64,000 bases of DNA from Thermodesulfobacteriota bacterium (GCA_030583865.1 CP129479.1:196744-260743); one strand, 5' to 3'. Shown: positions 16,203 through 58,653, numbered from the stretch's first letter. Notes: generated from the letters alone by a model not told the origin. A program made the numbers and translations.

Positions 16203-16321
16203 GCGTATATAGCCGTCTTTGAGCTTGATTTAACTACTGATTATAGCTCATTAAATGGGAGCATGACCAGAAAAAAAGCCGGACAAAGGGGGGTGAGTCG
16301 CATGAAAATGGGTGTGCTCTT

Positions 16322-37890: not shown

Positions 37891-38206
37891 TTGTCCCCTG
37901 TTATGCGCATGTAAGGCCCGGCAAATAACGGCGGTCCTTTTATCTGACCGTAACAGAGCGATTGCGCCATGTCAAGGATAAGCGGGCCGGCTGTCCGGAG
38001 ATTAAAAATGGCCTGAACCCCGCCGACTGCGCGGATTCGGGCTATAATACCTCGTTGGAAATCCGGTATCAGCGCCGTTTAATAAAGACGGTGCGCAAGA
38101 TGCGGCGTCAATCTTCCATTTAGGCCTGTTGCAATAAAACATTTAAAAGCTCAACGAGACTTGTTATATTTGGGAAGGCTCGGAGCGCGCGCGGGAGGTG
38201 AAGAGA

Positions 38207-41149
38207 ATGGTGAACAGGGACTCCGGTATCGACTTCATCGGGCAGGTGCCCTGGGGCACGCATCTCTGCCAGTTCTACGGCACGGAAAACGACCACATGG
38301 ACATGGCCGTCCCTTTCATAGCCGCGGGCCTCAAGTCGAACGAGCGCTGCGTCTTCATAGCCTCCGGAAGAGAGCAGCAGGAACGCGCGCTAAAGGCGTT
38401 AGAGAGGGCGGTCCCCGAGCTCGAGAAGCGCATATCAGGGCGTGAGCTCGAATTTCAGGGCCATGAGTGGTATTGCAAGGACGGGTCGTTTGAGCCCGAA
38501 GAAGTAATCCGCTCCTGGACCGAGATGCACGACAGGGCATTGAAGGCCGGATTCGAGGGGCTGAGAGTAGTCGGCAACACGCTCTGGCTCGAAAAGAAGC
38601 TCTGGAAGAGCTTCATGGAATACGAAGAGGCGGTCAGCGGCGTAATCAGGAAGCTCAATATGCTGGCCCTCTGCACCTACCCGGTCGGAGCGTGCGGGGC
38701 CGCGGAGCTCCTGGAAGCGGCCGCGAGCCACAAACCGGCCATAATAAAGTGCAACGGGCAATGGAGGTCGATAGAGGGCTTAGGGCATAAGGCCTCCGAG
38801 AGCGCCCTCAAGGAAAGCGAGCGCCGGTACAGGCTCCTTACGGAGTTCACGTCCGATATCGTCTTCAGGATGTCCATAAGGCCGGACGGCGGGCTGGACC
38901 TCGAGTGGATAACCGAGGCCTTTGAGAACGTATCGGGGTACGGCAACTGGGAGATATCCTCCTCCGAAAGCCTTGAGAAGCTCATTCACCCGGAGGACGC
39001 GCGGGAGTACCGGGACATGCTCGCGTCGGTATTGTCCGGCAGGCAGTCGGATTCGGAGGTCAGGTACATTTCCAGGGCCTCGGAGGTCCGCTGGCTCAAG
39101 CTCTATGCCCTGCCCGAATATTACGAGGGGACCAGGATAATAAAGGGGGTAATCGGGCGCGGCAAGGACATAACCCGGAGGAAAAGGGCGGAGGAGAGGC
39201 TTAGGGACTCCGAAAGGAAGCACAGGGGGCTCTTCGAGTCCATAAGCGAAGGGATACTGGAGACCTCGCTTGACGGCGCGGTCATCGACTGCAACCAGGC
39301 CTGCCTGGACATGCTCGGCTATTCGAGGGACGAGCTGAAGACGCTCTCGATCTCCGGGATTGCCGGGCCGCCGAAAGGGGGGGCATCGGATGAAAGCCCG
39401 TCCGGCGAGCGCGAATACGAATACGAGTGCCGCAGGAAAGACGGCTCAACCGTCCCGGTCTGCCAGAGGACCATGCCCATAAGGGACGCGTCAGGCGCCG
39501 TCGTCGGCGCGTGGCTGGTGCTCAAGGACCTTTCTCCCCTTAAGGAGGCCTGCAGGGAGCTCGACGCCAGGGTAGAGGAGGGGACCCGTGAGCTTAGGGA
39601 ACTGGTCTCAATCCACAGGGCGGGCGAGGAGCGCTTCAGGGCCCTGGTCGAGACGACGAGCGACTGGGTCTGGGAGACCGATCCCGAGGGCGCGTACACA
39701 TACGTGAGCCCGAAGGTCCTGGAGTTACTGGGCTACAGGCCGGAGGAGGTGGCCGGGAGAAACAGGTTCGATTTCATGGCCCCGGACGAGGCGCAATGCA
39801 TGAGGGCCGCCTTCAGTGAGATAGCCGCGGTCAGGAAGCCCTTTTCTCTCGTCGAGATCCGGAAGACAAGGAAAGACGGAAGGATGGTCATCATCGAGAC
39901 GAGCGGCGCGCCCATACTGGACCCCAACGGGAGCCTCCTCGGCTACAGGGGTGTCGACAGGGACATAACCGCAAGGAAGGTAGAGGAAGAGGAGCGGGGC
40001 AGGATACAGGACCAGCTCATCCAGTCCCAGAAGATGGAGGCCATAGGCGCCCTTGCCGGAGGCATAGCCCACGACTTCAATAACCTGATGGTGGTCATAA
40101 AGCTCAACGCCGAGCTTGCCCTGAAACGAGAGCAGCAGAAAGGCGACATAAGCGCCTTCCTCGAGCAGATAGGCATAGCCTCGGAAAGGGCCGAGAACCT
40201 TACGAGGCAGCTCCTCATATTCAGCCGAAAGCAGCCCACCCAGACGAGGGCCCTGAACCTCAATGCCAAGGTCGACAACATGCTCAGGATACTCAAGCGA
40301 CTCATAGGCGAGAATATCCGCATAAAGACCTTCTTCGACCCCGGGATAAAGAAGATAAGGGCAGACAAGGTCAATATCGAGCAGATCGTAATGAACCTGG
40401 TCATAAACGCCAGGGACGCGCTCCCGAGGGGCGGGACCATTACCATAAGGACCGACAACGTCGAGGTCTCCGGGAGCGATTCGGCCCGGACAGCCTCTCT
40501 CTCGGCCGGCGCATACGCCAGGCTGACGGTGGAGGACGACGGGGTCGGTATTGAAGGCGGCGTCATAAGGCGCATCTTCGAGCCCTTTTTCACCACCAAG
40601 GGCCCGCGCGGCACAGGCCTAGGCCTCGCCGTAGTACACGGCATAGTTAAAGAGCTCAAGGGCTGGATAGACGTGGAGAGCAAGTCCGGAGCGGGCGCCA
40701 GGTTCGAGGTCTATCTGCCGGCCATGGAATGGATTGAGGAGGCGGAGGCAAAACGGCCCCCCGAAGGGCCGCTCCTGGGCAAGGGCGAAAGGGTGCTCGT
40801 CGTGGAGGACGAGAAGCTCCTCCGGAAAAGCGTTGCCGTTGTGCTCGCACGGAACGGCTACAGGGTCTTCGAGGCCTCCTCGGCAAAGGAAGCCATCGAG
40901 CTCTTTGAGAAGGAGAAGGGCATCTTCGACCTCGTCTTCAGCGACATGGTCCTCGAGGACAAGGACGGGGTGCGCCTCGTCGACGACCTCCGGGCAAGGA
41001 ACTCCGCCTTCAAGGCGCTCATCACAAGCGGGTACCTGAACGTTGAGTCGCAGTGGCCGGCCATAAGGGACCGTGGGTTCAACTTCCTCCAGAAGCCTTA
41101 CGAGGTGACCGACCTCCTGAGGTCGATACGGAACGCCATAGAGAACTGA
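38207..41149 (+). CDS. Hybrid sensor histidine kinase (MEDS + PAS x3 + HisKA + HATPase + receiver)
   Basis: N-terminal MEDS-like segment (HLCQFYGTENDH). H-box HDFNN. Terminal receiver domain. RBS GGGAGGTG precedes the ATG at 38207. Confidence 0.8.
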   Translation: MVNRDSGIDFIGQVPWGTHLCQFYGTENDHMDMAVPFIAAGLKSNERCVFIASGREQQERALKALERAVPELEKRISGRELEFQGHEWYCKDGSFEPEEVIRSWTEMHDRALKAGFEGLRVVGNTLWLEKKLWKSFMEYEEAVSGVIRKLNMLALCTYPVGACGAAELLEAAASHKPAIIKCNGQWRSIEGLGHKASESALKESERRYRLLTEFTSDIVFRMSIRPDGGLDLEWITEAFENVSGYGNWEISSSESLEKLIHPEDAREYRDMLASVLSGRQSDSEVRYISRASEVRWLKLYALPEYYEGTRIIKGVIGRGKDITRRKRAEERLRDSERKHRGLFESISEGILETSLDGAVIDCNQACLDMLGYSRDELKTLSISGIAGPPKGGASDESPSGEREYEYECRRKDGSTVPVCQRTMPIRDASGAVVGAWLVLKDLSPLKEACRELDARVEEGTRELRELVSIHRAGEERFRALVETTSDWVWETDPEGAYTYVSPKVLELLGYRPEEVAGRNRFDFMAPDEAQCMRAAFSEIAAVRKPFSLVEIRKTRKDGRMVIIETSGAPILDPNGSLLGYRGVDRDITARKVEEEERGRIQDQLIQSQKMEAIGALAGGIAHDFNNLMVVIKLNAELALKREQQKGDISAFLEQIGIASERAENLTRQLLIFSRKQPTQTRALNLNAKVDNMLRILKRLIGENIRIKTFFDPGIKKIRADKVNIEQIVMNLVINARDALPRGGTITIRTDNVEVSGSDSARTASLSAGAYARLTVEDDGVGIEGGVIRRIFEPFFTTKGPRGTGLGLAVVHGIVKELKGWIDVESKSGAGARFEVYLPAMEWIEEAEAKRPPEGPLLGKGERVLVVEDEKLLRKSVAVVLARNGYRVFEASSAKEAIELFEKEKGIFDLVFSDMVLEDKDGVRLVDDLRARNSAFKALITSGYLNVESQWPAIRDRGFNFLQKPYEVTDLLRSIRNAIEN

Positions 41150-45346: not shown

Positions 45347-45387
45347 GGGGCCTGGACTTGATCCAAATTCCAGGGGAGGATTTAACA

Positions 45388-45771
45388 ATGCTATCCAGTA
45401 TCGGAAAACATTTGAAGATAAGCCTTTTCATAGTGCTGGGCATACTAATGCTCCATGCCTATTCGGAAGCCGAGGCCATGAAGGCGGGGATAAAGGAGGC
45501 CGAAGCCGGCAAGGTCTGCATGGTCAACGACACTGTGATGGGCAAGCCCCAGATACCGGTGGAGTTCGAGGGAAAGACCTATTACGGGTGCTGCGCCGGC
45601 TGCGTTGAGAGGCTTAAGTCTGACAGGACTGTGCGATATGCCGTTGACCCCGTCACTGGCAAAGAGGTAGACAAGGCAAAGGCGGTAATTCTCGAAGGGC
45701 CTGGGGGCGAGGCTATTTATTTCGAGTCAGCCGATTCGGCAATCCGGTACAGGATAAACGCCATGAAATAA
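45388..45771 (+). CDS. Secreted YHS/TRASH-type metal-binding domain protein
   Basis: Signal peptide followed by VCMV...EGKTYYGCCAGCVERL. RBS GGGGAGGA upstream. Confidence 0.65.
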   Translation: MLSSIGKHLKISLFIVLGILMLHAYSEAEAMKAGIKEAEAGKVCMVNDTVMGKPQIPVEFEGKTYYGCCAGCVERLKSDRTVRYAVDPVTGKEVDKAKAVILEGPGGEAIYFESADSAIRYRINAMK

Positions 45772-47212: not shown

Positions 47213-47230
47213 ACTATCCGGCAGACACCA

Positions 47231-47267
47231 AAAGCCCCCGCCGCTCACCCGGCGGGGGCTTTTTTTC
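47231..47267 (+). terminator. Rho-independent terminator (AGCCCCCGCC-loop-GGCGGGGGCT-T7)
   Basis: 10-bp GC stem followed by T7, 19 nt after the htpX stop. Confidence 0.85.
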
Positions 47268-47441
47268 ATTTCAGATCGATTCCCCTGCCGTTTCGGCGGT
47301 GTAGTTCATTTCAGGCGGCCCAAGCGGGAGTTCTTTAAAATAAGCAACTTAAGGTCGAAATTCATTCAAGTCTTCACTCCATGCCTCCGAAGAGAAGGGT
47401 AAATGGCCGGCCAGGCCGGAAAGAACCAAAGGAGGAGAAGC

Positions 47442-47621
47442 ATGGAAACCAGGTGCATCCATCTCGCCGGGGCCGTATGCAAGGCCTCTCTGAGCAGCAT
47501 GGTCCCGAGCCTATTCGATTATGACGCGCTCTGCAAGTCCCATGTGCATTCGAGCTGCCCAGTGCTCAAGGCCTACAAGGAGCGCGGCGAGTTCGACGAA
47601 CTCTATAAGATCGCCGTTTAG
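47442..47621 (+). CDS. Small Cys4 protein (59 aa), paralog of ORF 50711..50896
   Basis: RBS GGAGGAG present. Shares CxASLxxMVPSxxxxxxAxCxxxxxxxCPxL with the second copy. Confidence 0.55.
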   Translation: METRCIHLAGAVCKASLSSMVPSLFDYDALCKSHVHSSCPVLKAYKERGEFDELYKIAV

Positions 47622-47750
47622 GCCTCAGTCCGTTACCTGAATTCTTGCACCGTCCGGAGCCTTCGGATGAAGCGGTTTTTTGACATTCCGCTTCCCAAGG
47701 GCGCCTTTAGCCTTGCCCGCCCCCGCCCCTTCAAGTTAAAATATCCAGAT

Positions 47751-49097
47751 ATGCGAAAGACAGCGGAAAAGGTCTGCCTCGTAAGCCTCGGCTGCCCCAA
47801 GAACCTCGTCGATTCCGAGGTGATGCTGGGCATCCTCAGGGAGGCAGGGGCCGAGCTTACGACTGACGAAGCGCTTGCCGACGTCATCGTGGTCAATACC
47901 TGCGGCTTTATCGGGGACGCGAAAGAGGAATCCATAGACGCCATCCTGGCCCTTGCCGAGAGGAAGAAGACCGGCAGGTGCAGGAGGCTTATAGTCGCGG
48001 GGTGCCTAACCCAGCGCTACAAGGAAGAGCTCGCGGATAGCCTGCCCGAGGTCGACTGCTTCATAGGTACGGGCGAGTACCACAGGATAGCGGAAGCGAT
48101 ACGTGAGGATTTCAGGGAGAGGGTGCTCGTCGGACTGCCTACCTATATACACGACTACACGACCCCGCGTATCGTCTCGACCCCGGGACGTTACGCATAC
48201 GTGAAGGTAGCCGAAGGGTGCTCGAACCACTGCAGCTACTGCAGCATCCCTTCCATAAGGGGCGGGTTCAGGAGCAGAAGCGTCGATTCCGTTGTGAGGG
48301 AGGCGGCCTCCCTTGCCGAGCAGGGCATAAGGGAAGTTAACCTCATCGCGCAGGACACTACCTCTTTCGGCAAGGACAGGGGCGCGGGTCTCGAAGAGCT
48401 GCTTAAAAACCTCGTCCCCATTAAGGGGATAGAATGGATAAGGCTACTCTATCTCTATCCGGGGAGGGTATCCGACGGACTCATATCCATAATGGAGGCA
48501 GAGGAGAAGGTGTTGAGCTACATAGACCTTCCGCTCCAGCACATAAGCCCGCCGGTCTTGAAGGCCATGAACAGGCAGTACACGAGGGCCGAGGTGGAGG
48601 GGCTTATAGAAAAACTCCGCTCAAGGCTGCCTGGCCTGACCTTGAGGACATCCATCATAACCGGCTTCCCCGGCGAGACGGACAGGGACTTCGAGGAGCT
48701 TCTTGATTTCATCGATGCCGTCCAATTCGACAGGCTCGGCGTATTCATGTACTCGCGGGAGGAAGGCACCCCGGCCTACGATTTCAAAAGGCAGGTCCCG
48801 GCCAAAGTAAAGGCAGGGAGGATGGACGCGCTCATGAGCGCGCAGAGGGAGATTTCGCTCCGGAAAAACAGGGAGCTTATCGGCAAGGGGATAAGGGTGC
48901 TCGTTGAGGAAGGCCCGCGAGAGGGATATTCGCTCAAGGGCAGGGCCTCTTCCCAGGCGCCGGACGTGGACGGAGCCGTATACATGACGGCCACCCATGC
49001 CGCGCCCGGAGATATAATATCCGCGGTCGTGACCGGCGCAGACGACTACGACATCCACGCCGAGGCCACGGGGGCTACTTCCGCAGCTCCTTCCTGA
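47751..49097 (+). CDS. rimO: Ribosomal protein S12 methylthiotransferase (MTTase + radical SAM + TRAM)
   Basis: MTTase domain (LGCPKN), radical SAM CSNHCSYCS motif, and a TRAM tail. Confidence 0.85.
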   Translation: MRKTAEKVCLVSLGCPKNLVDSEVMLGILREAGAELTTDEALADVIVVNTCGFIGDAKEESIDAILALAERKKTGRCRRLIVAGCLTQRYKEELADSLPEVDCFIGTGEYHRIAEAIREDFRERVLVGLPTYIHDYTTPRIVSTPGRYAYVKVAEGCSNHCSYCSIPSIRGGFRSRSVDSVVREAASLAEQGIREVNLIAQDTTSFGKDRGAGLEELLKNLVPIKGIEWIRLLYLYPGRVSDGLISIMEAEEKVLSYIDLPLQHISPPVLKAMNRQYTRAEVEGLIEKLRSRLPGLTLRTSIITGFPGETDRDFEELLDFIDAVQFDRLGVFMYSREEGTPAYDFKRQVPAKVKAGRMDALMSAQREISLRKNRELIGKGIRVLVEEGPREGYSLKGRASSQAPDVDGAVYMTATHAAPGDIISAVVTGADDYDIHAEATGATSAAPS

Positions 49098-49386
49098 GCC
49101 TCTTCTCAAGAGACTCGACCTTCGCGGATATCCGCCCCTTCTTCCCCTTCCTGTAGTCGACCTTTATGGAGACCGAGACGCGGCCGCAGTCCTTCCTCAT
49201 ACGCTCGAAGCACTTCCTCACCACCCCGAAGACCTCGTCCCAGTCGCCCTCGACCACCGTGCCCATGGGGTTCAGCCTGTACGGGAGCCCGCTCCTGTCG
49301 ATGATCTCTAGCGACCTTGCGACATATTTGCTTACGCTCTCTCCCCTGCCGATGGGGGTCATGCTGAATTCCAGAAGGACCGACAT
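49075..49386 (-). CDS. MTH1187/YkoF-family thiamine-binding protein
   Basis: 103 aa with DUF77-like pattern. Confidence 0.65.
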   Translation of the reverse strand: MSVLLEFSMTPIGRGESVSKYVARSLEIIDRSGLPYRLNPMGTVVEGDWDEVFGVVRKCFERMRKDCGRVSVSIKVDYRKGKKGRISAKVESLEKRLRKELRK

Positions 49387-49488
49387 GCGCTACCTCCTCC
49401 ATACCGTTTTCAAGCCCCGCAGGACTTTGCGCAATTTTCCCAAACGCACTTGAAATTTGCAAGTCTTACGGATATGCTCTTATTTATT

Positions 49489-49629
49489 GGCAACCTCTAA
49501 AAATTGACCTGTACCCCGGACCCTGCGTCTGGCCGGGAATAAAAATGCTCACTATTACTCATATATGCTCCGCTTTTTATTCCCGGCCCTCCTTGATTGC
49601 GGGAAAAATCTCCAATTTTGGAGGTTGCC
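49489..49629 (+). repeat. Repeat family B, copy 3
   Basis: TGGCAACCTCTAAAAATTGAC...CCAATTTTGGAGGTTGCC. Ends 28 nt before the cytochrome c ATG. Confidence 0.9.
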
Positions 49630-49657
49630 TGTTGTATTTAAACCAAAAGGAGGCCTT

Positions 49658-49990
49658 ATGAACAGGATAATTTACTGTGCGGTTTTAACCCTGGCCCTGG
49701 CCGTTCCGGGAGCGGCCCTGGCGGCTGATGCGGGGGCGCTTTTCAAGTCCAGGTGCCAGCCGTGCCACGGCCCCGAGGCAAAAGGCACCGCAATCGCGCC
49801 GGGCCTGGCGAATAGCCAGTTCGTGCGTGACGCCTCCAGGGAGGAAATCGCCCAGACCATAACCAAGGGCCGCCAGGGAGCTGACAGGAAATACCCGCAG
49901 CAGTTCCCGGCAGGGATGCCCCCGCAGAAGCTTTCAGACGACGAGGTGAACCAGCTTGTAGACTATCTTAAGGGATTGCAAGGCAAATAA
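49658..49990 (+). CDS. Mono-haem c-type cytochrome
   Basis: Signal peptide and CQPCH haem motif. RBS AGGAGG upstream. Confidence 0.85.
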   Translation: MNRIIYCAVLTLALAVPGAALAADAGALFKSRCQPCHGPEAKGTAIAPGLANSQFVRDASREEIAQTITKGRQGADRKYPQQFPAGMPPQKLSDDEVNQLVDYLKGLQGK

Positions 49991-50057
49991 GGGCAACACC
50001 TGAAAAACATCTCTGATTTTTAGGTGTTCCGTAAGAAAAATTTTCGACTGGAAAGCG

Positions 50058-50095
50058 AAAAAGCCCGGCGGCAAAACCGCCGGGCTTTTTTTTCA
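50058..50095 (+). terminator. Rho-independent terminator (AGCCCGGCGG-loop-CCGCCGGGCT-T8)
   Basis: GC stem followed by T8 after the cytochrome gene. Confidence 0.85.
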
Positions 50096-50263
50096 ATCGG
50101 GCCTGCGGCTTTCCGCACTGCCGGTCGGAAACCCATTTCCCGTACGGCCTCCCTCGCGACGAATCCCTTACTTTTCTTCCTGACTGCAAAACCTTAACGC
50201 GCCCGTAACCCCGTCTTTACCTGACTTCCCCATAATAAAAGAAAAAAGTAAAAAGGAGAGAGG

Positions 50264-50668
50264 ATGGAGGAAAGGATATTGATAATCGAGGACGAGCTGG
50301 ACCTGCTGGACCTCGTGGATTTCAATCTTACTCGAAAGGGCTATATCACACGCGGCGCTCTCGACGGAAGTGAGGGTTTAAGCCTCGCAATGTCGTTCGC
50401 GCCGGAGCTTGTGATACTCGATCTGATGCTCCCAGGCATCGACGGATGGCAGCTCTGCAGGCTCATAAAAAAGGAATTGGCCGGGGTCCGGGTGCTAATG
50501 CTCACGGCCAAGGGCCTGTCCGACGACATGGAAAAGGGCCTTGCGACGGGCGCCGACGATTATATGACCAAGCCCTTCAGCCTGGATGAGCTTTTTTCCA
50601 GTGTTGAACGCCTGCTTAAGGGAGGCGGCAGGAAACGGAACTATAACACCCCCGTCACAATCCCTTGA
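50264..50668 (+). CDS. Single-domain response-regulator receiver (PhoB-paralogous, no DNA-binding domain)
   Basis: Receiver-domain residues conserved. About 45% identical to the receiver of PhoB at 53576. Ends right after the receiver. Confidence 0.8.
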   Translation: MEERILIIEDELDLLDLVDFNLTRKGYITRGALDGSEGLSLAMSFAPELVILDLMLPGIDGWQLCRLIKKELAGVRVLMLTAKGLSDDMEKGLATGADDYMTKPFSLDELFSSVERLLKGGGRKRNYNTPVTIP

Positions 50669-50710
50669 CATTGGCCGCCTATACTCTTTTTAAAAACAAG
50701 GAGAAAAGAG

Positions 50711-50896
50711 ATGGAATGTCCGTATCTGGAAAAGGGGAGGGTGGCCTTGTGCGGCGCGTCGATAACCATGATGGTCCCCTCGATCGAAGAGGAGAAGGCC
50801 TGGTGCAGCACCGAAGACCACTACCGCTGCCCGATGCTCGTAAGCCATGTGTTGAGGTCAGGAATAAGGAAAGAGCGCGTAAAGAGGACAGCTTAA
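50711..50896 (+). CDS. Small Cys4 protein (61 aa), paralog of ORF 47442..47621
   Basis: RBS AGGAGAAAAGAG present. Shared Cys4 spacing and MVPS motif. Confidence 0.55.
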   Translation: MECPYLEKGRVALCGASITMMVPSIEEEKAWCSTEDHYRCPMLVSHVLRSGIRKERVKRTA

Positions 50897-50940: not shown

Positions 50941-52131
50941 ATGAAGAGGAAACTTATCTGGACTCTCGCTTTCGCAACTCTCGGTGCCTGCCTGATATCA
51001 GGTGCCGCGGCCCCGGCCCACGCGGAGTACATATTCGGCGACGAGACAAAGGGAGTGAAAATCACGCAGAACGAATCCGACCTGAACATAAGGCTCAGGC
51101 TTCAGCCCAGGTTCGATTTCGGGGACACCATCAAGTCGAAGGACGGCAGCTCCTACGCGAGCGAGAGCGACCTGTATCTGAGGAGGGTGCGCCTTGAGCT
51201 CGGCGGGAATCTCCTTGCCAAGACCCTTAGCTACAACGTCACTCTCAGCGCCGACAAGTGGGACGCCGCCGGGGGCTCCAACGCCAACGTAAGCCTTTTA
51301 TACGCCTACGTGAGGTGGCACGCTGACGACGCGGTAGCCCTGACCGCAGGCAAGGAGAAGCTCCCCTATTCGAGGGTCTCGCTTGCGTCCTCCGCAAGGC
51401 AGCTCCTTGTAGAGAGGCCGGTATCCACAGAAGCCGCAAAGAAGGTATTCGGCAAGACCGACGCCTACTACCAGCCGAAGCTTGCGGCGTCCGGCAAGCT
51501 CGCCGAGGGCGTTTTCGCGTACGAGGCGGCGGTCGCGGACGGCTGGCAGAACGGGGATGCGATACAGACCGGCAGGACCGTCTTCAAGGCAAGCCCGCTC
51601 TACGCGGCAAGGGTCGAGCTCTCGCCGCCTGGATGGGTCGAGAAGTCGAGGAGCGATGCCCACCTCGGCAAGGGGCGGCACCTGACCTTCGGCGCGAACG
51701 TCGTCAACCAGGGCGGCATAGAATACAAGGAAAACGGGTTTGAGGAGGACAGGACTCTCCTCGGCTTCGACATATCGGGCCACCTGAACGGGCTTACCGC
51801 CCAGTTCGAGTACAACGCGTGGGAGGTCGACTCGACCGACCCTGCCGTCGGGACAAGCAAACCCAGGGGCTGGTACGCGCAGGCAGGCTACTTCATAGAC
51901 GGACCGAATATCGAGCCCGTTGCCAGGTACGAGGTCTATGACCAGAACTCGAACGCCGCGGACAAGGATGAGAAGGTAACGACCCTTGGTGTCAACTGGT
52001 ACGGCAAGGGGCACAGCCTGAAGGTAGGGGCGAACTGGGTGCGTCACGAGTACGGCGGGAACGCGAGCGGCAAGCTTGCCAACGCCGACTCCAAGGACCT
52101 TTTCCAGGTGCAGGCCCAGATGTACTTCTAA
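50941..52131 (+). CDS. oprP: Phosphate-selective porin O/P
   Basis: Signal peptide present. Porin_O_P-type beta-barrel ending in F. RBS GGAGGA upstream. Confidence 0.8.
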   Translation: MKRKLIWTLAFATLGACLISGAAAPAHAEYIFGDETKGVKITQNESDLNIRLRLQPRFDFGDTIKSKDGSSYASESDLYLRRVRLELGGNLLAKTLSYNVTLSADKWDAAGGSNANVSLLYAYVRWHADDAVALTAGKEKLPYSRVSLASSARQLLVERPVSTEAAKKVFGKTDAYYQPKLAASGKLAEGVFAYEAAVADGWQNGDAIQTGRTVFKASPLYAARVELSPPGWVEKSRSDAHLGKGRHLTFGANVVNQGGIEYKENGFEEDRTLLGFDISGHLNGLTAQFEYNAWEVDSTDPAVGTSKPRGWYAQAGYFIDGPNIEPVARYEVYDQNSNAADKDEKVTTLGVNWYGKGHSLKVGANWVRHEYGGNASGKLANADSKDLFQVQAQMYF

Positions 52132-52417: not shown

Positions 52418-53461
52418 ATGAGAAAGGCGATGATCCTTACCGTCATATGCGCGGCGCTTGCCCTGCTGGCCGGAAATGCGCGGGCTGAGGCGCTCATAAA
52501 CGGCGCGGGCGCGACCTTCCCGTACCCGCTCTATTCGAAGTGGGTCTACGAGTACGGGAAGATAACCGGCGCGAAGATCAACTACCAGTCCATAGGGAGC
52601 GGCAGCGGCATAAGGCAGATAAAGGCCAAGACCGTGGATTTCGGCGCATCCGACGCGCCGCTTGAGTTTAAGGACCTGGAGGAATCGGGCCTCATGCAGT
52701 TCCCGGCGGCGGTTGGCGGGGTGGTGCCGGTAGTGAACATCAAGGGCATCGCGCCCGGCGATCTCAAGCTCACCCCGGGCGTGCTGGCCGACATCTATCT
52801 CGGGAAGATAGAGAGATGGGACGACAAGGCCATACAGGCACTTAATCCCGGGCTTAAGCTGCCGTCGGATTCCATAACCGTCGTCCGCCGCTCTGACGGG
52901 AGCGGCACTACATGGATATTCACCAATTACCTCAGCAAGGTGAGCGCGGAGTGGAAAGACAAGGTCGGCTTCGGCACGGCGGTCAACTGGCCGGCAGGCG
53001 TCGGCGGCAAGGGAAACGAGGGCGTCGCGAATTACGTCAAGAGGATAAAGAACACCATCGGCTACGTGGAGCTTGTGTACGCGCTCCAGAACAAGCTCAC
53101 CTACACGAGCCTCCAGAACAGGGAAAAGGCGTTTGTACAGCCGTCAAAGGAGAGCTTCATGGCCGCGGCATCCGGGGCGGACTGGAATGGCGCGCCAGGC
53201 TTTTCGGTTGTGCTCACCGACCAGCCCGGCAAGGACGCCTGGCCAATGGCCGGCGCGACCTTCATACTGGTCCACAAAAACCCGCAGAACTGCGGCAACA
53301 CCAGGGCGGTCCTCGAGTTTTTCGACTGGGCCTACCAGAACGGCGCGGAGATGGCCACGGCGCTTGATTACGTGCCCATCCCCAAAAACGTTTACTCGAT
53401 AGTGGAGGATGCCTGGGCGAGCCAGATAGCCTGCAACGGCGAGCCGGTCTGGAAGAAGTAA
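52418..53461 (+). CDS. pstS: Phosphate ABC transporter substrate-binding protein
   Basis: Signal peptide and PstS fold motifs. RBS AAGGAGAAG upstream. Confidence 0.9.
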   Translation: MRKAMILTVICAALALLAGNARAEALINGAGATFPYPLYSKWVYEYGKITGAKINYQSIGSGSGIRQIKAKTVDFGASDAPLEFKDLEESGLMQFPAAVGGVVPVVNIKGIAPGDLKLTPGVLADIYLGKIERWDDKAIQALNPGLKLPSDSITVVRRSDGSGTTWIFTNYLSKVSAEWKDKVGFGTAVNWPAGVGGKGNEGVANYVKRIKNTIGYVELVYALQNKLTYTSLQNREKAFVQPSKESFMAAASGADWNGAPGFSVVLTDQPGKDAWPMAGATFILVHKNPQNCGNTRAVLEFFDWAYQNGAEMATALDYVPIPKNVYSIVEDAWASQIACNGEPVWKK

Positions 53462-53518: not shown

Positions 53519-53575
53519 TGGAATCTCAACCGGCCCGTAACATTACCTTAACAATAGCGGAATAGAATCGAGCAT

Positions 53576-54256
53576 ATGAGACAGACCATACTCGCGGTAG
53601 ACGACGAAACCGATATACTTAAGCTCCTCAGGTATAACCTTTCCAACGCCGGGTATGGTTTCCTGGAAGCCGAGGACGGGCCCGAAGCCCTGGAGCTTTC
53701 CAGAAAGTCCTCTCCCGACCTGATACTTCTTGACGTGATGCTCCCGAACATGGACGGTAATGAGGTGCTCAAGCGGCTGAAGGCGGCCCCGGACACAAAG
53801 GGCATACCCGTTATCATGCTCACGGCCAAGGGAGAGGAGATAGACAGGGTGCTGGGCCTTGAGCTGGGCGCCGACGATTACATCGTGAAGCCATTCAGCC
53901 CGAGGGAGCTATTGCTGAGGGTAAGGGCGGTCATGAGAAAGGGGCAGGACGCCGCGCCGAAGGTAGCGGGCGCCGGGCCGCTTTCCATGGATACCGAAAG
54001 GTTCGCCGCGTTCGCGGACGGAAAAAGGCTCGACCTCACCGCTGCCGAGTTCAGGCTTTTATTGGCGCTCGTGGATTCAAAGGGCAGAATACTCGGAAGG
54101 CAGGCGCTTATCCGGCGCATTGGAACTGATGAGGCCGCCGCAGGCTCGCGGACCATAGACACGCACGTAAGGAACCTCAGAATGAAGCTCGGTGCGTACG
54201 CTGGGCTTATCGAAACCGTAAGGGGGTTGGGCTACAGATTTACAGGAGGCGAGTAG
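53576..54256 (+). CDS. phoB: Phosphate regulon response regulator (OmpR family)
   Basis: Receiver domain plus winged-helix domain (TIDTHVRNLR...GLGYRF). Confidence 0.85.
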   Translation: MRQTILAVDDETDILKLLRYNLSNAGYGFLEAEDGPEALELSRKSSPDLILLDVMLPNMDGNEVLKRLKAAPDTKGIPVIMLTAKGEEIDRVLGLELGADDYIVKPFSPRELLLRVRAVMRKGQDAAPKVAGAGPLSMDTERFAAFADGKRLDLTAAEFRLLLALVDSKGRILGRQALIRRIGTDEAAAGSRTIDTHVRNLRMKLGAYAGLIETVRGLGYRFTGGE

Positions 54257-54294: not shown

Positions 54295-55365
54295 TCAGGA
54301 ATAGGGAGCCCTTAGCTTCAGGTCTGAAGCTTCGGCCCCGAAGAGCCGTTTTCTAAAGTAAACGGACACATTCACAAGGGCCATCATTACCGGCACCTCG
54401 ACCAGCGGGCCGATGATCGCGGCGAAAGCCGCCTCGGAGTGGATCCCGAAGGTGGCGATCGCCACGGCTATTGCCAGCTCGAAATTATTGGAGGCCGCGG
54501 TAAAGGCCACTGTAGCGGTCCTTGGGTAATCCGCTCCGACCCGCCTCCCCATCCAAAAACTCACCAAGAACATGACGACGAAATAGACGAGGAGCGGCAG
54601 GGCTATGAGCGCGGCATCGAGAGGTATCCTCATGACTTCCCCGCCCTTCAGGCTGAACATCACGACAATCGTGAAGAGGAGGGCCGTAAGGGTCAGGGGG
54701 CTTATCTTGGGGATGAACGAGCCCTCGTACCAGTCGCGCCCTTTGAGCCTTACGAGAACGAGCCTGGTAACCATGCCGGAAAAGAAAGGTATGCCGAGGT
54801 ATATGAGGACGCTCTCCGCGATTTCCGGCATGCCTATGTTGACGACCGCGCCTTCCGCGCCCAGAAGCGGAGGGAGGAGTGTTATGAAGAACCAGGCGTA
54901 GAGGCTGTAAAAGACTATCTGGAAGAGGCTGTTCACGGCCACTATGCCCGCAGCGTACTCCGAATCGCCTCCGGCGAGGTTGTTCCAGACTATGACCATT
55001 GCGATGCAGCGCGCAAGCCCCACGAGTATGAGGCCGGCCATGTACCCCGGGTGGTTTCCGAGGAAGAGGAGGGCCAGTCCGAACATGAGCGCCGGGCCGA
55101 TAAGCCAGTTCTGCGTAAGCGACAGGGCGAGTATCTTCCAGTCCCTGAAGACCTTGCCGAGCTCCTCGTAACGGACCTTCGCAAGAGGCGGGTACATCAT
55201 GAGTACGAGGCCTATTGCTATGGGTATGTTGGTCGTGCCGCTCCCGAGCGAGTCTATGAAGACCGAAAGCGCGGGGAATGCCCAGCCCGCCAGAACGCCC
55301 GCGCCCATGGCCAGGAGCACCCAGGCGGTCAGGAACCTGTCGATGAAAGAAAGCCTTGCCGTCAA
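54295..55365 (-). CDS. acr3: Arsenite efflux transporter, ACR3 family
   Basis: 10-TM protein with ACR3-family N-terminal motifs. Confidence 0.85.
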
Positions 55366-55794
55366 TTACGAACCCTTTTCGAGTATCTCGGGCAGTCTCT
55401 TTATGAATTCCCGTATCTCGTCCCTGACCCTTCGGTAATGCGCAATGGCCTCTTCGCGGCTCCTTGCGCTTTTTGCTAGACCTGGCGGGTCGTCAAAGCC
55501 CGCGTGCACTACCTTCGGCGCGCCGGGGAAAAGGGGGCAGTTCTCGTCTGCATCCGAGCAGACAGTTATCACAAGGTCGAAATGCCTTCCATTCACGGCA
55601 TCCAGGCCCTTCGAGGCCTGGCCGCTTATGTCCACGCCGGCCTCCTGCATGGCCCCTACCGCGAGAGGGTCGAGCCCCTTGGGCCTTGTGCCAGCGGATT
55701 CGGCCTCAATGCGTCCGGCCCAGAAGTGGCGCGCCCAGCCCTCGGCCATCTGGCTCCTGCACGAGTTCCCGGTGCAGAGAAAGAGCACCCTCAT
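55366..55794 (-). CDS. arsC: Arsenate reductase, LMW-PTP type (thioredoxin-coupled)
   Basis: CTGNSCRS P-loop. Its ATG overlaps the arsR stop (ATGA). Confidence 0.85.
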   Translation of the reverse strand: MRVLFLCTGNSCRSQMAEGWARHFWAGRIEAESAGTRPKGLDPLAVGAMQEAGVDISGQASKGLDAVNGRHFDLVITVCSDADENCPLFPGAPKVVHAGFDDPPGLAKSARSREEAIAHYRRVRDEIREFIKRLPEILEKGS

Positions 55795-56156
55795 TTTTTC
55801 GCCTGTGTCCTGCAAAGCTCCTCCTTTGAGACCCCGGTGATCTTTTTGAGGCTCAGCAAATCCCTCGTAACGGAACTGTCTGCCTCGAGCGCCTCCCTGA
55901 CCCACTTCAGGGCCTTCCGCGCCGAGGGAGAGGCGTCCCGGCCCGCGAGCCTGAAGTACACCCAGCGGCCGTCCTTCCGGGAGCTTATGAGGCCGGCCTG
56001 ATGGAGCACGCTGAGATGTTTGGAGACCGTGGAGGGCGCAAGCCCGAGGAGGCCGACTATCTGGCAAACGCAGAGCTCGCCGCCTGAAAGGGCCATAATG
56101 GCCCGGAGCCTTGCCTTATCCGAAAGAGCCCTTGCTATGGAGACCGTCTCGTTCAT
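55791..56156 (-). CDS. arsR: ArsR-family metalloregulator
   Basis: ELCVCQI metal-binding motif within the HTH region. Confidence 0.85.
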   Translation of the reverse strand: MNETVSIARALSDKARLRAIMALSGGELCVCQIVGLLGLAPSTVSKHLSVLHQAGLISSRKDGRWVYFRLAGRDASPSARKALKWVREALEADSSVTRDLLSLKKITGVSKEELCRTQAKK

Positions 56157-56359: not shown

Positions 56360-56758
56360 TTATTTGCCCGGGCCGGAGACCGTCTCGCCCCCGGCTTTAA
56401 TCCAGGCGTTTATGCCGCCCTCAAGGTCGCGTACTCCCTTGTTGCCTTTCCAGCCGAGGATGCCGCGGGCCGTCTGGCTCCTCTTGCCGGAGCGGCAGTA
56501 GAGGATTACCTGGCCGTCCTCGGGGAGGGGCTCTGCGTTCTCCAGGGTATCCAGCGGCATAAGGACGCTCCCCGGGATGTGCGATTCCGCGTGCTCCTGC
56601 GGGGTGCGGACGTCTATCAGTATCACGCGCTCCCCTCTCTCCATCATGGCCTTCAATTCCCCGGCAGTCACCCTGGCCGGGTCAGCCGCGATTGATACCG
56701 ACGCGAAGCAGGCGATAAGGAACGCGAGGGGGATAGCCGTAAAAAGCAGGTTACGCAT
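56360..56758 (-). CDS. Periplasmic single-domain rhodanese (sulfurtransferase)
   Basis: Signal peptide present. Active-site loop CRSGKRS. Confidence 0.8.
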   Translation of the reverse strand: MRNLLFTAIPLAFLIACFASVSIAADPARVTAGELKAMMERGERVILIDVRTPQEHAESHIPGSVLMPLDTLENAEPLPEDGQVILYCRSGKRSQTARGILGWKGNKGVRDLEGGINAWIKAGGETVSGPGK

Positions 56759-56802
56759 GGCCGCATTATACCAGTTCAGGCCCTGCGGGCAAAGTGTTTT
56801 TT

Positions 56803-56945
56803 GGCAACCTCTAAAAATTGATCTTTTCCCCGGACCCTGGGTAGTTACGGGAATAAAAATGCTCACATATTACTCATATATGCTCCGCTTTTTATTCCCG
56901 GCCTTCCTTGATTGCGGGAAAAATCTCTAATTTTTAGAGGTTGCC
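56803..56945 (+). repeat. Repeat family B, copy 4
   Basis: TGGCAACCTCTAAAAATTGATC...TTTTTAGAGGTTGCC. Lies between the permease stop and the rhodanese start. Confidence 0.9.
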
Positions 56946-56947
56946 TT

Positions 56948-57760
56948 TTATCGGGAAAAGGCCTTGCCGCCAGCGCCTGAAAAGAGCCTCAGGGCGAGGA
57001 GCGCGAAGAACAAGACGCTCAGGGAGGCCACTATGAGAGGGGCCGCCGGCAGGTCGAAGGAATAGGAGAGGATGAGCCCCGAAAGGCTCGCCGCCACGCC
57101 AAGGGCCCAGCCCAGGAGCAGCTGCCATTTGAGCCTGCCTGTTAAAAGCTTTCCTGTGAGCACCGGTATCACCAGGAAAGCGAAGACCTGAAGCACCCCG
57201 GCCATCTGAACGGATTTTACGAGAACGAGCGCGAAGCTCAGGAAGAAAAGGAACTCCCAGGCACCGCCGCCCCGTCCCTCGAAAGAGAGCGAAAGGAACT
57301 TCCTCCTGAACGCGAACTGGAAGAGCCCTATCCCGGAATAGAGCGCGAAGGCCGCGAAAAGCTCACCGGGCGCGACCCACAGTATGCTGCCGTTCAGTAT
57401 GGCCTTGAACTCTTCCATGCCGTGAGGCGTCCTGTCGAGGACGAGCATGCTCGCCGAGAGTGAAAAGATGTAGAGGACGCCTATGAAGGCTTCGATATTG
57501 GCAACCCTCGATATCGTCCTTGAGAAAGAAAGTATGAAGGCCCCCAGCACCGCGAAGCCCAGTGAAAAGGCCGCGCCGCTCCATTCGCCCCATCCCAGAA
57601 AGAACGAGAGCGCGGTCCCGAGCCCGATGAACTGGGCGAGCGAGAGGTCCACGAAAATTATCCCCCTCCGGAGCACATGCACCCCGAAGTAAGCGTGCGC
57701 GATTACGAGGAGCACGCACGCCAGGAAAGGGAAAAGGAGTATGCCGAGGGCCTCCATCAC
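56948..57760 (-). CDS. Metal (Zn/Mn-type) ABC transporter permease, ABC-3 family
   Basis: 270 aa with 8-9 TM segments and a ZnuB-like pattern. Confidence 0.75.
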   Translation of the reverse strand: MMEALGILLFPFLACVLLVIAHAYFGVHVLRRGIIFVDLSLAQFIGLGTALSFFLGWGEWSGAAFSLGFAVLGAFILSFSRTISRVANIEAFIGVLYIFSLSASMLVLDRTPHGMEEFKAILNGSILWVAPGELFAAFALYSGIGLFQFAFRRKFLSLSFEGRGGGAWEFLFFLSFALVLVKSVQMAGVLQVFAFLVIPVLTGKLLTGRLKWQLLLGWALGVAASLSGLILSYSFDLPAAPLIVASLSVLFFALLALRLFSGAGGKAFSR

Positions 57761-57762
57761 CT

Positions 57763-58653
57763 TTAATCTCCGCTTAAATCCTTAACCACCCTGTCCATGA
57801 GGCCGAACCAGTCGTCTATGCCTTTCTGGCTCCCGACCTCGTGGGGCAGGACTATCGCTTTCACGCCGGTCCTCTTCGAGAGGAAGCCGAGGGCCTTGCC
57901 GCCGTGATAGGAGGTGGTAAGGATAGCGTCCGGCCTCTCTTTCGACATCGAATCCACAAGCTCCGCAATGTGCCCGGAGGAGGGCGGGATGCCTGGCCGC
58001 TGCTCTATGTAGCCGGTTATCCTGAAACCGAGGTCCGCCGCCAGGTACTCGAAGAACCTGTGGAAAGCCACATAGCTTTTGCCCTTGAGCCTTCCATCCC
58101 ATTCCTTCCTCCTCTCGGCGAGTTTTTTCTCGAAAGAGGCGAGGTTGGCCATGTAAAGGCCCCCGCTGCCGCTGTCGAGCGCCGAGAGGGCCTCTGCGAT
58201 GCCCCTGGCGACCCTGCCCATTTGAGAGGCCGAGAGGTGGTAATGCGGGTTGCCGAGCGGGTGCACGTCACCCTGGCTCCTGTCGACCCGCTCCTGTATT
58301 TCTATTGGTTTGACGAATTTGGAGCAGTCCAGGTAGCCCGCCTTGCCCGGCTGGATACCGGGATTTCTCGACGACTCGATTATGACCGGAAGATAGCCGA
58401 TTTCCAGGTCCAGGCCGTTGAATATGACGATATCCGCTTTCCTTGCCGCGGCTATCATGCTCGGCCTGGCCTCGATGTAATGCGGGTCCTGGTTCGGTTT
58501 TACGAGCACGGTAACGGTGACCCTGTCTCCGCCGATGTCCTTTGCGACGCTCCCTATCCATGGGAGCGTCGCAAGGACATTAAGCTCGGCGGCTAATGCC
58601 GGGCCTGAAAGGAAAAACATCGTGAAAACGGCCAAGAGAGCCCTTTTAAGCAC
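57763..58653 (-). CDS. Metal ABC transporter substrate-binding protein (ZnuA/TroA-like)
   Basis: Signal peptide. Cluster-9 SBP with His-containing metal-site motifs. Confidence 0.75.
   Translation of the reverse strand: MLKRALLAVFTMFFLSGPALAAELNVLATLPWIGSVAKDIGGDRVTVTVLVKPNQDPHYIEARPSMIAAARKADIVIFNGLDLEIGYLPVIIESSRNPGIQPGKAGYLDCSKFVKPIEIQERVDRSQGDVHPLGNPHYHLSASQMGRVARGIAEALSALDSGSGGLYMANLASFEKKLAERRKEWDGRLKGKSYVAFHRFFEYLAADLGFRITGYIEQRPGIPPSSGHIAELVDSMSKERPDAILTTSYHGGKALGFLSKRTGVKAIVLPHEVGSQKGIDDWFGLMDRVVKDLSGD

Follow-up and report, generated by a model that had tools for sequence, protein, structure and literature searches.

Two short open reading frames (ORFs) were studied in a 64,000-nucleotide stretch of a Thermodesulfobacteriota bacterium genome (GCA_030583865.1, CP129479.1:196744-260743). 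This whole stretch is called the window below, and features lie on its plus strand unless stated otherwise. Both ORFs encode proteins of about 60 amino acids that carry four aligned cysteines, and we refer to them as Cys4 proteins. Copy 1 (47442–47621) encodes 59 aa and belongs to a clade marked by "FDYDA". Copy 2 (50711–50896) encodes 61 aa, belongs to a clade marked by "TEEHYRCP", and is the first gene of a putative operon behind a Pho box. The matches to the family hidden Markov model (HMM) are 5.6e-18 and 2.9e-27, respectively.

Both ORFs have good ribosome-binding sites. AGGAGG (47430–47435) stands 6 nt before the ATG of copy 1, a start that its orthologues share, and AAGGAG (50698–50703) stands 7 nt before the ATG of copy 2. 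Coordinates, translations and binding sites all agree with a preliminary description, which had been made from the sequence alone and had taken the ORFs for a paralogous pair with identically spaced last three cysteines. BLASTP aligned the two copies at 44% identity, gapless over 32 aa (E=3e-9). The C-x17-C-x7-C spacing is the same in both, and the N-terminal cysteine is also conserved (C5 in copy 1, C3 in copy 2), so that all four cysteines align. Intermediate sequences, e.g. in the related loci L026 and L031, connect the two copies. The observation of a paralogous pair is confirmed; what had been overlooked is that the pair splits into one Pho-regulated and one non-Pho clade. In a six-frame translation of the window, the Cys4 motif occurs at these two places only, and the copies are unlinked members of different clades.

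Orthologues are 81–93% identical for copy 1 and 82–93% identical for copy 2. When the window genes were compared with the orthologues in L001 and L002, dN/dS was 0.22–0.33 for copy 1 and 0.08–0.28 for copy 2, values that indicate purifying selection on both. The gene order of the window from htpX to phoB (45–54 kb) is fully kept in L001, a 446-kb contig of a related metagenome-assembled genome (MAG), and both small genes are called there. The four invariant cysteines, the dN/dS range of 0.08–0.33 and the orthologues in the same synteny show that both ORFs are genuine genes and belong to a small Cys4 protein family that lacks annotation, as had been proposed. One copy 2 orthologue (L015, 1055–1236) is split by a frameshift; it gives two overlapping HMM matches with the translation broken past residue 23, so the gene has either decayed to a pseudogene or been misassembled.

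The family extends well beyond these orthologues. Word-index homologue searches gave only close orthologues or part of the family, and an exhaustive profile search was needed. This search covered 1.84 billion protein cluster representatives and returned 99 representatives at E≤1e-3; clustered at 50% identity, the family amounts to about 100 groups. Almost every member stands alone as a protein of 52–126 aa (median 67 aa). All four cysteines are invariant in 101 of 101 aligned members. The spacing C-x7-11-C-x17-C-x7-C is found in 92 of these, with the x17 and x7 spacings fixed in 92–99. Ala15, Pro6, Pro22 and Pro40 are conserved in 83–94 members. Position 36 is His in 67 and Tyr in 24. Exactly four cysteines are present in 56 members, and two of the four invariant ones lie in Cys-Pro motifs. 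The family consensus is MxCPYL...CxAS...PS...YCxTExHxxCPxxLxxxLR.

No member scored above the cut-off of any Pfam or NCBIfam model, the family profile matched nothing among PDB sequences, a plasmid collection held no homologue, and no description of the family was found in the searchable literature. Rfam placed no RNA family in the window. The sole database model that touched copy 2 was Pfam PF24184 (Phage_zn_bind_5, residues 11–41). We rejected it as a chance-level match: it reached 13.8 bits where the cut-off is 27 (E=0.05) and matched one of the 101 members. Every source name seen was "hypothetical protein", and all sources are uncultivated organisms labelled "Deltaproteobacteria", Thermodesulfobacteriota, Nitrospirae/Dissulfurispiraceae or simply "bacterium". 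Members were seen in anaerobe-type MAGs only, and many of the MAGs bear groundwater sample names.

A zinc-ribbon or rubredoxin-like fold had been suggested for the pair. This idea found no support. The family has no CxxC (CPxCG) knuckles; its cysteines are single and spaced by x7-11, x17 and x7. AlphaFold2, run with the family alignment, predicted for copy 2 a beta-hairpin (6–8/12–14) and two helices (25–32 and 41–50), with a mean pLDDT of 82.4 and about 90 over residues 11–50. The copy 1 model has the same topology (pLDDT 71.8). Foldseek found no neighbour of this fold in PDB (best E=7.7) or BFVD. In the models the cysteines lie before strand 1, at the end of strand 2, at the end of helix 1 and before helix 2. 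With the cysteines at the tips of the hairpin and helices, the fold would fit one metal centre, either Zn or Fe-S, and we consider it likely that Cys4 proteins bind metal. There is no long hydrophobic run in the sequence and hence no apparent signal peptide or membrane segment, which ruled out a secreted disulfide protein. A metallothionein was also ruled out, given four cysteines per about 60 residues, exactly four in 56 of 101 members, and single cysteines in place of the CxC/CxxC clusters of metallothioneins.

The gene directly upstream of copy 2 (50264–50668) encodes a stand-alone PhoB-like receiver of 134 aa, with a Response_reg domain only and no DNA-binding domain. It shares 42% identity with the receiver half of PhoB, whose gene lies further downstream. 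As we read the alignment, the phospho-acceptor residues are retained, namely the acidic pocket, D53, T81 and K103. Between the receiver gene and copy 2 lies a Pho box (50641–50670) made of three 7-bp repeats in 11-bp phase: CTATAAC, CCGTCAC and CCTTGAC, separated by ACCC and AATC and followed by A. The box runs across the stop codon that ends the receiver gene, so the copy 2 promoter would lie partly inside the upstream coding sequence; 41 nt separate the end of the box from the copy 2 ATG. The receiver gene and copy 2 share a reading frame, with one TGA and 14 codons between them. A putative -10 hexamer, TATACT (50680–50685), begins 10 nt past the last repeat. E. coli Pho promoters have the same geometry between the Pho box and the -10 element.

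Pho boxes were scored with a weight matrix built from 12 sites upstream of Cys4 genes in loci that lack the receiver. These source sites consist of two CTGTCAT-like repeats in 11-bp phase, roughly 50–60 nt before the ATG. Twenty shuffles served as background, and their maximum was 17.8 bits. The copy 2 Pho box scored 21.4 bits (50652–50670) and 12.5 bits, with the third phased repeat starting at 50641. The 21.4-bit site is the second-best in the 64 kb and recurs in orthologous loci. The best site, CCGTAACATTACCTTAACA (53535–53553, 25.6 bits), lies before phoB. A weak Pho-box-like site before the receiver gene, CCTTAACGCGCCCGTAACC (50192–50210, 9.1 bits), is within the shuffle range and is tentative; related loci have stronger sites before psiE or receiver genes. 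The third-best site (37937–37955, 15.8 bits) also falls within the shuffle range. It stands about 240 nt before a gene (38198–41149) for a 983-aa hybrid kinase with MEDS, PAS, HisKA, HATPase and receiver domains.

Downstream of copy 2, after 44 nt, lies oprP (50941–52131), which encodes a phosphate-selective porin (Porin_O_P, Pfam 9.6e-27). It is followed by the gene for the phosphate-binding protein PstS (52418–53461; PBP_like_2), whose start was set at the ATG after AAGGAGAAGAT, and by phoB (53576–54256), whose product has a receiver and a winged-helix domain (Response_reg and Trans_reg_C). No PhoR gene lies beside phoB in the window. No separate Pho box was found there before oprP or, at 9 bits or more, before pstS, so that a Cys4-oprP-pstS transcript with copy 2 at its head is probable. 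We conclude that copy 2 is very probably a member of the Pho regulon. Being first behind the Pho box, it should be made when phosphate starvation sets in.

Beyond phoB, an arsenic resistance operon lies on the minus strand (54295–56156) and converges on it: arsR (55791–56156), arsC (approximately 55366–55800) and acr3 (54295–55365). Past this operon, also on the minus strand, is a metal-uptake cluster (56360–58653) with genes for a rhodanese, a ZnuB-like ABC-3 permease and a ZnuA-type metal-binding protein.

Copy 1 lies in a different setting. An intrinsic terminator after htpX (47230–47263; a 14-bp stem with 10 GC pairs, then a T run) sets the upstream limit of its unit. The gene rimO (47667–49097; Pfam UPF0004, Radical_SAM and TRAM) begins 45 nt past copy 1. 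No terminator was predicted between the two, and copy 1 and rimO are probably co-transcribed. The FDYDA clade was found as htpX-Cys4-rimO in seven genomes, and this order is conserved in L001, L002, L009, L026, L027 and L031. A conserved promoter was sought upstream of copy 1 and nothing convincing was found. The radical-SAM neighbour raised the idea that copy 1 is the precursor of a ribosomally synthesized and post-translationally modified peptide. This was rejected: the neighbour is a canonical rimO and not a dedicated maturase of the SPASM/RRE type, it occurs in one clade only, and the family is mostly found elsewhere, beside pst, pho or receiver genes. Upstream of the copy 1 locus, a gene at 45358–45771 encodes a 137-aa protein with the motif "GKTYYGCCAGC" and sub-threshold TRASH/YHS matches (E about 0.002–0.006). 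It is possibly a metal-binding periplasmic protein, and a homologous ORF is present in L001 and a few other loci.

The preliminary description had named the neighbours correctly, with rimO past copy 1, the receiver-only protein before copy 2 and the porin after it. It had missed the Pho box before copy 2 and the link to Pho and receiver genes across the family. This link emerged from two sets of loci. We gathered 35 genome loci with a subfamily alignment and clustered their ORFs; the second set comprised 80 metagenome loci of a different subfamily with the signature CPHLxKW...YVPSxFxLxEYC..KxHxKCPF. In the genome loci the genes repeatedly follow the order [psiE]-[stand-alone receiver]-Cys4-porin O/P-pstS-(pstCAB-phoU)-phoB. 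A strong Pho box lies between the upstream receiver or psiE gene and Cys4 in every such genome locus examined outside the matrix set. In the independent subfamily, 49 of 80 loci have a plus-strand Pho box of at least 14 bits; on the reverse strand, 3 do. The plus-strand boxes lie 12–97 nt before the Cys4 genes, and often there is another between the Cys4 genes and pstS.

Pooled counts of gene context covered 118 related loci, and 89 loci were evaluable for the next labelled downstream gene. This gene was pstS in 31 (30 on the same strand and 1 on the opposite strand), a response regulator in 19 and oprP in 16. Pho genes lie within 2.5 kb in 62 of the 118 loci. As judged from these gene orders, Cys4 is typically the first gene behind a Pho box, before oprP, pstS(CAB-phoU) or phoB.

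A response regulator adjoins Cys4 in 37 of the 118 loci, and a stand-alone receiver does so in 24. The layouts differ. Besides the (psiE-)receiver-Cys4-oprP order, there are loci with a histidine kinase and receiver gene followed by two Cys4 genes and pstSCAB-phoU. Other loci have a NarL-type response regulator, Cys4, a receiver and a short HisKA/HATPase kinase. In this kinase HisKA starts about 35 residues from the N-terminus, which leaves little space for a sensor domain. A further layout is Pho box-Cys4-phoB, and in a distant high-GC member Cys4 is followed by a receiver-like protein. Gene context thus indicates that the family is enriched beside receiver domains in at least four unrelated arrangements.

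Cys4 genes often occur in more than one copy. A scan with the family HMM found 2–4 copies in 44 of 129 loci, and arrays of 2–4 divergent paralogues are seen, for example, in L037 (4813–5165), L072 (1643–3094), L074, L106 and L123. Tandem arrays begin with the "CPIFLxKxLRR" type and end with the "YVPSxFEL" type, and the reverse order was never found. The aligned coding regions overlap by 3–6 nt in two arrays (L037 and L123), which suggests translational coupling and hetero-oligomers. Taken together, the fixed order and the overlaps suggest that different Cys4 paralogues act jointly.

The module also occurs in fusions. Protein P0084 (L043, 637–1593) joins two tandem Cys4 modules to a GcvH-like domain and is encoded beside a multihaem cytochrome c3. 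Protein P0074 (L129, 1535–2284), seen on at least 5 contigs, joins a DksA/TraR C4 zinc finger to a Cys4 module. The contexts of both fusions were uninformative about a Pho link.

Several other genes were noted near Cys4 genes. Small HMA_2 proteins (PF19991, "CoBaHMA") are encoded upstream of Cys4 genes in 18 of 87 loci. Examples stand before Cys4 arrays in L040 (679–954), L049, L054, L085–L090, L099 and L100, often with a second, divergent HMA_2 gene and an upstream Pho box. CoBaHMA is otherwise discussed for cyanobacterial intracellular carbonate biomineralisation (bioRxiv 10.1101/2024.07.07.602159). In L045 and L046, two Porin_O_P genes and a LysR regulator gene lie between Cys4 and pstS. 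In the same loci, an ABC ATPase at the PstB position (15790–16207) has a TusA-family match, which would be an unusual fusion.

What the protein might do was weighed against this context. Because Cys4 comes first behind the Pho box and recurrently adjoins receiver genes, we rank first the proposal that it is an accessory regulator, induced by phosphate starvation, that binds a PhoB-type receiver. We give this a probability of about 0.4. The Pho box would drive Cys4-oprP-pstS, and the Cys4 protein would be the first product at phosphate starvation. Its four cysteines would hold a Zn or Fe-S centre. The protein would bind the adjacent receiver-only paralogue, PhoB itself, or both, and once bound it would tune phosphotransfer or output, possibly as its metal or thiol centre changes state. 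In a wider version, Cys4 would be a new class of co-regulator of the Pho system, a metal- or redox-sensing micro-protein that is the first product of PhoB-activated promoters, binds PhoB-type receivers, sometimes as ordered paralogue hetero-oligomers, and gates starvation signalling by iron, sulfur or redox state in anaerobes. This wider version seems to us somewhat unlikely.

Several observations weigh against a receiver-binding regulator. In roughly half of the loci linked to Pho, no receiver gene adjoins Cys4, which means that such a partner need not be present in cis. The proximity to phoB may be just the clustering of Pho genes. Receiver domains never occur among the family's fusions, whose partners are only the GcvH-like domain and the DksA/TraR zinc finger. 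The model also leaves the copy 1 clade, which lies beside rimO without a Pho box, unexplained. No site of at least 9 bits was found in 47264–47441 before copy 1; within its clade, L026 and L031 have none and L027 has one of only 13.2 bits. Copy 1 is a diverged paralogue from a non-Pho clade, and it may act as partner to copy 2 or as its constitutive counterpart.

The rimO link of copy 1 favours another explanation, in which Cys4 is a small redox or electron-transfer metalloprotein, with a mononuclear Fe(Cys)4 or an Fe-S centre, and not a regulator. Copy 1 would give electrons or sulfur to RimO, directly before which it lies in 7 genomes, and the Pho-linked copies would serve some redox step required under phosphate starvation. 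Four invariant cysteines, two of them in Cys-Pro motifs, the sightings in anaerobe-type MAGs only and the cytochrome c3 gene beside one fusion protein all agree with this. Most members, however, lie among genes for transport and signalling, functions for which no electron donor is required. There is also no CxxC or ferredoxin-like motif in the family, and neither Pfam nor the structure comparison tied it to a redox protein; we regard this explanation as unlikely.

We judge it equally unlikely that Cys4 is a small Zn protein that serves Pst, PhoU or PhoR and not a receiver. Such a protein would bind PstB, PhoU or PhoR and modulate transport or the signal from transporter to kinase. Cys4 is first in oprP-pstS or directly before pstSCAB-phoU in 46 of 89 loci, and it has its own Pho box. 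Tandem paralogues in a set order, where in some cases the stop codon of one gene overlaps the start of the next, would suggest a hetero-oligomer of fixed proportions. On the other hand, the window and several relatives have oprP-pstS-phoB but no pstCAB-phoU nearby, and in the sequence available the loci with the NarL-type regulator, Cys4, receiver and kinase show neither pst genes nor a Pho box.

The ars operon that abuts the Pho cluster of the window brings in arsenic. Cys4 might be a thiol-based binder or chaperone of arsenite (or Zn), co-induced with phosphate uptake since Pst also imports arsenate. In L019, L023 and L045–L048, about 130 nt separate Cys4 from a divergently oriented arsR, and with the window operon this suggests that arsenic resistance and Pho are repeatedly linked in these lineages. 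Several loci also have aquaglyceroporin genes. Yet ars genes are immediately upstream in only 8 of 87 loci, and even the arsR-divergent Cys4 genes carry a Pho box. As(III) sites normally use three cysteines, whereas four widely spaced, invariant cysteines in a folded 60-aa domain look structural, and the cysteine content is only 6–7%. We therefore hold an arsenite-binding role to be very unlikely.

That the ORFs do not encode functional proteins, but arose by chance or act in cis as leader peptides for the operons behind them, might be thought from their short length and constant promoter-proximal position, but is effectively refuted by the four cysteines kept over 101 divergent sequences, dN/dS below 0.35, the confident predicted fold, the paralogues in unrelated contexts and as domains of fusion proteins, and the independent calling of the genes in many assemblies.

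We compared the proposed receiver-binding regulator with known small proteins. IraP, which is induced by phosphate starvation and binds the response regulator RssB, and PmrD are small connector or anti-adaptor proteins of two-component systems. Like the proposed Cys4 regulator, they are small, stand-alone, controlled by stress regulons and bind a receiver-containing protein. They differ in being enterobacterial, in having no Cys4 centre and in showing no sequence or structural relation to the family, for which receiver binding is only proposed. PhoU, reported to bind metal, is an accessory regulator of the pst operon under Pho control and is present in the same loci as Cys4. However, it has about 220 aa in two three-helix bundles (PF01895), whereas Cys4 has about 60 aa, is dissimilar and coexists with PhoU rather than replacing it. 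PhnA/YjdM is a zinc-ribbon protein of the Pho-regulated phn operon with CxxC...CxxC knuckles. It resembles Cys4 as a small four-cysteine protein without an assigned role in a Pho-regulated cluster, but the Cys4 family lacks these knuckles and stays below threshold for zinc-ribbon models.

Two further groups are alike in their cysteines. Rubredoxins and zinc ribbons also have four cysteines able to hold one metal ion in 50–60 residues. The Cys4 family differs in lacking CxxC/CPxCG, in its hairpin and two helices, and in having no Pfam, PDB or Foldseek match. WhiB-like (Wbl) proteins are small cytoplasmic regulators of actinobacteria whose four invariant cysteines hold a [4Fe-4S] cluster and which contact the transcription machinery. 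Cys4 proteins are likewise small and cytoplasmic with four invariant cysteines; the Wbl spacing, however, is C-xn-C-x2-C-x5-C, and the Cys4 family has no Pfam match. The connectors such as IraP, PhoU and PhnA/YjdM are the closest functional analogues, and none is related to Cys4 in sequence, cysteine pattern or predicted fold.

The Pho regulon is among the best-studied bacterial stress circuits, and the Cys4 family is absent from every curated library searched. Its place in the operon of copy 2 points to a so far overlooked component of the response to phosphate starvation among uncultivated anaerobes. For so well-studied a regulon its link to Pho is robust and unexpected: in many uncultivated lineages that resemble sulfate reducers or Nitrospirota, phosphate-uptake or phoB operons have Cys4 as their leading gene, right after the Pho box. 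At minimum, these genes deserve a family definition, which would end their being skipped or labelled "hypothetical". If Cys4 is a metal- or redox-dependent modulator of receivers, a fold without known relatives would gain a function, and a new input would be added to the way bacteria sense phosphate in groundwater that is anoxic and rich in iron and arsenic.

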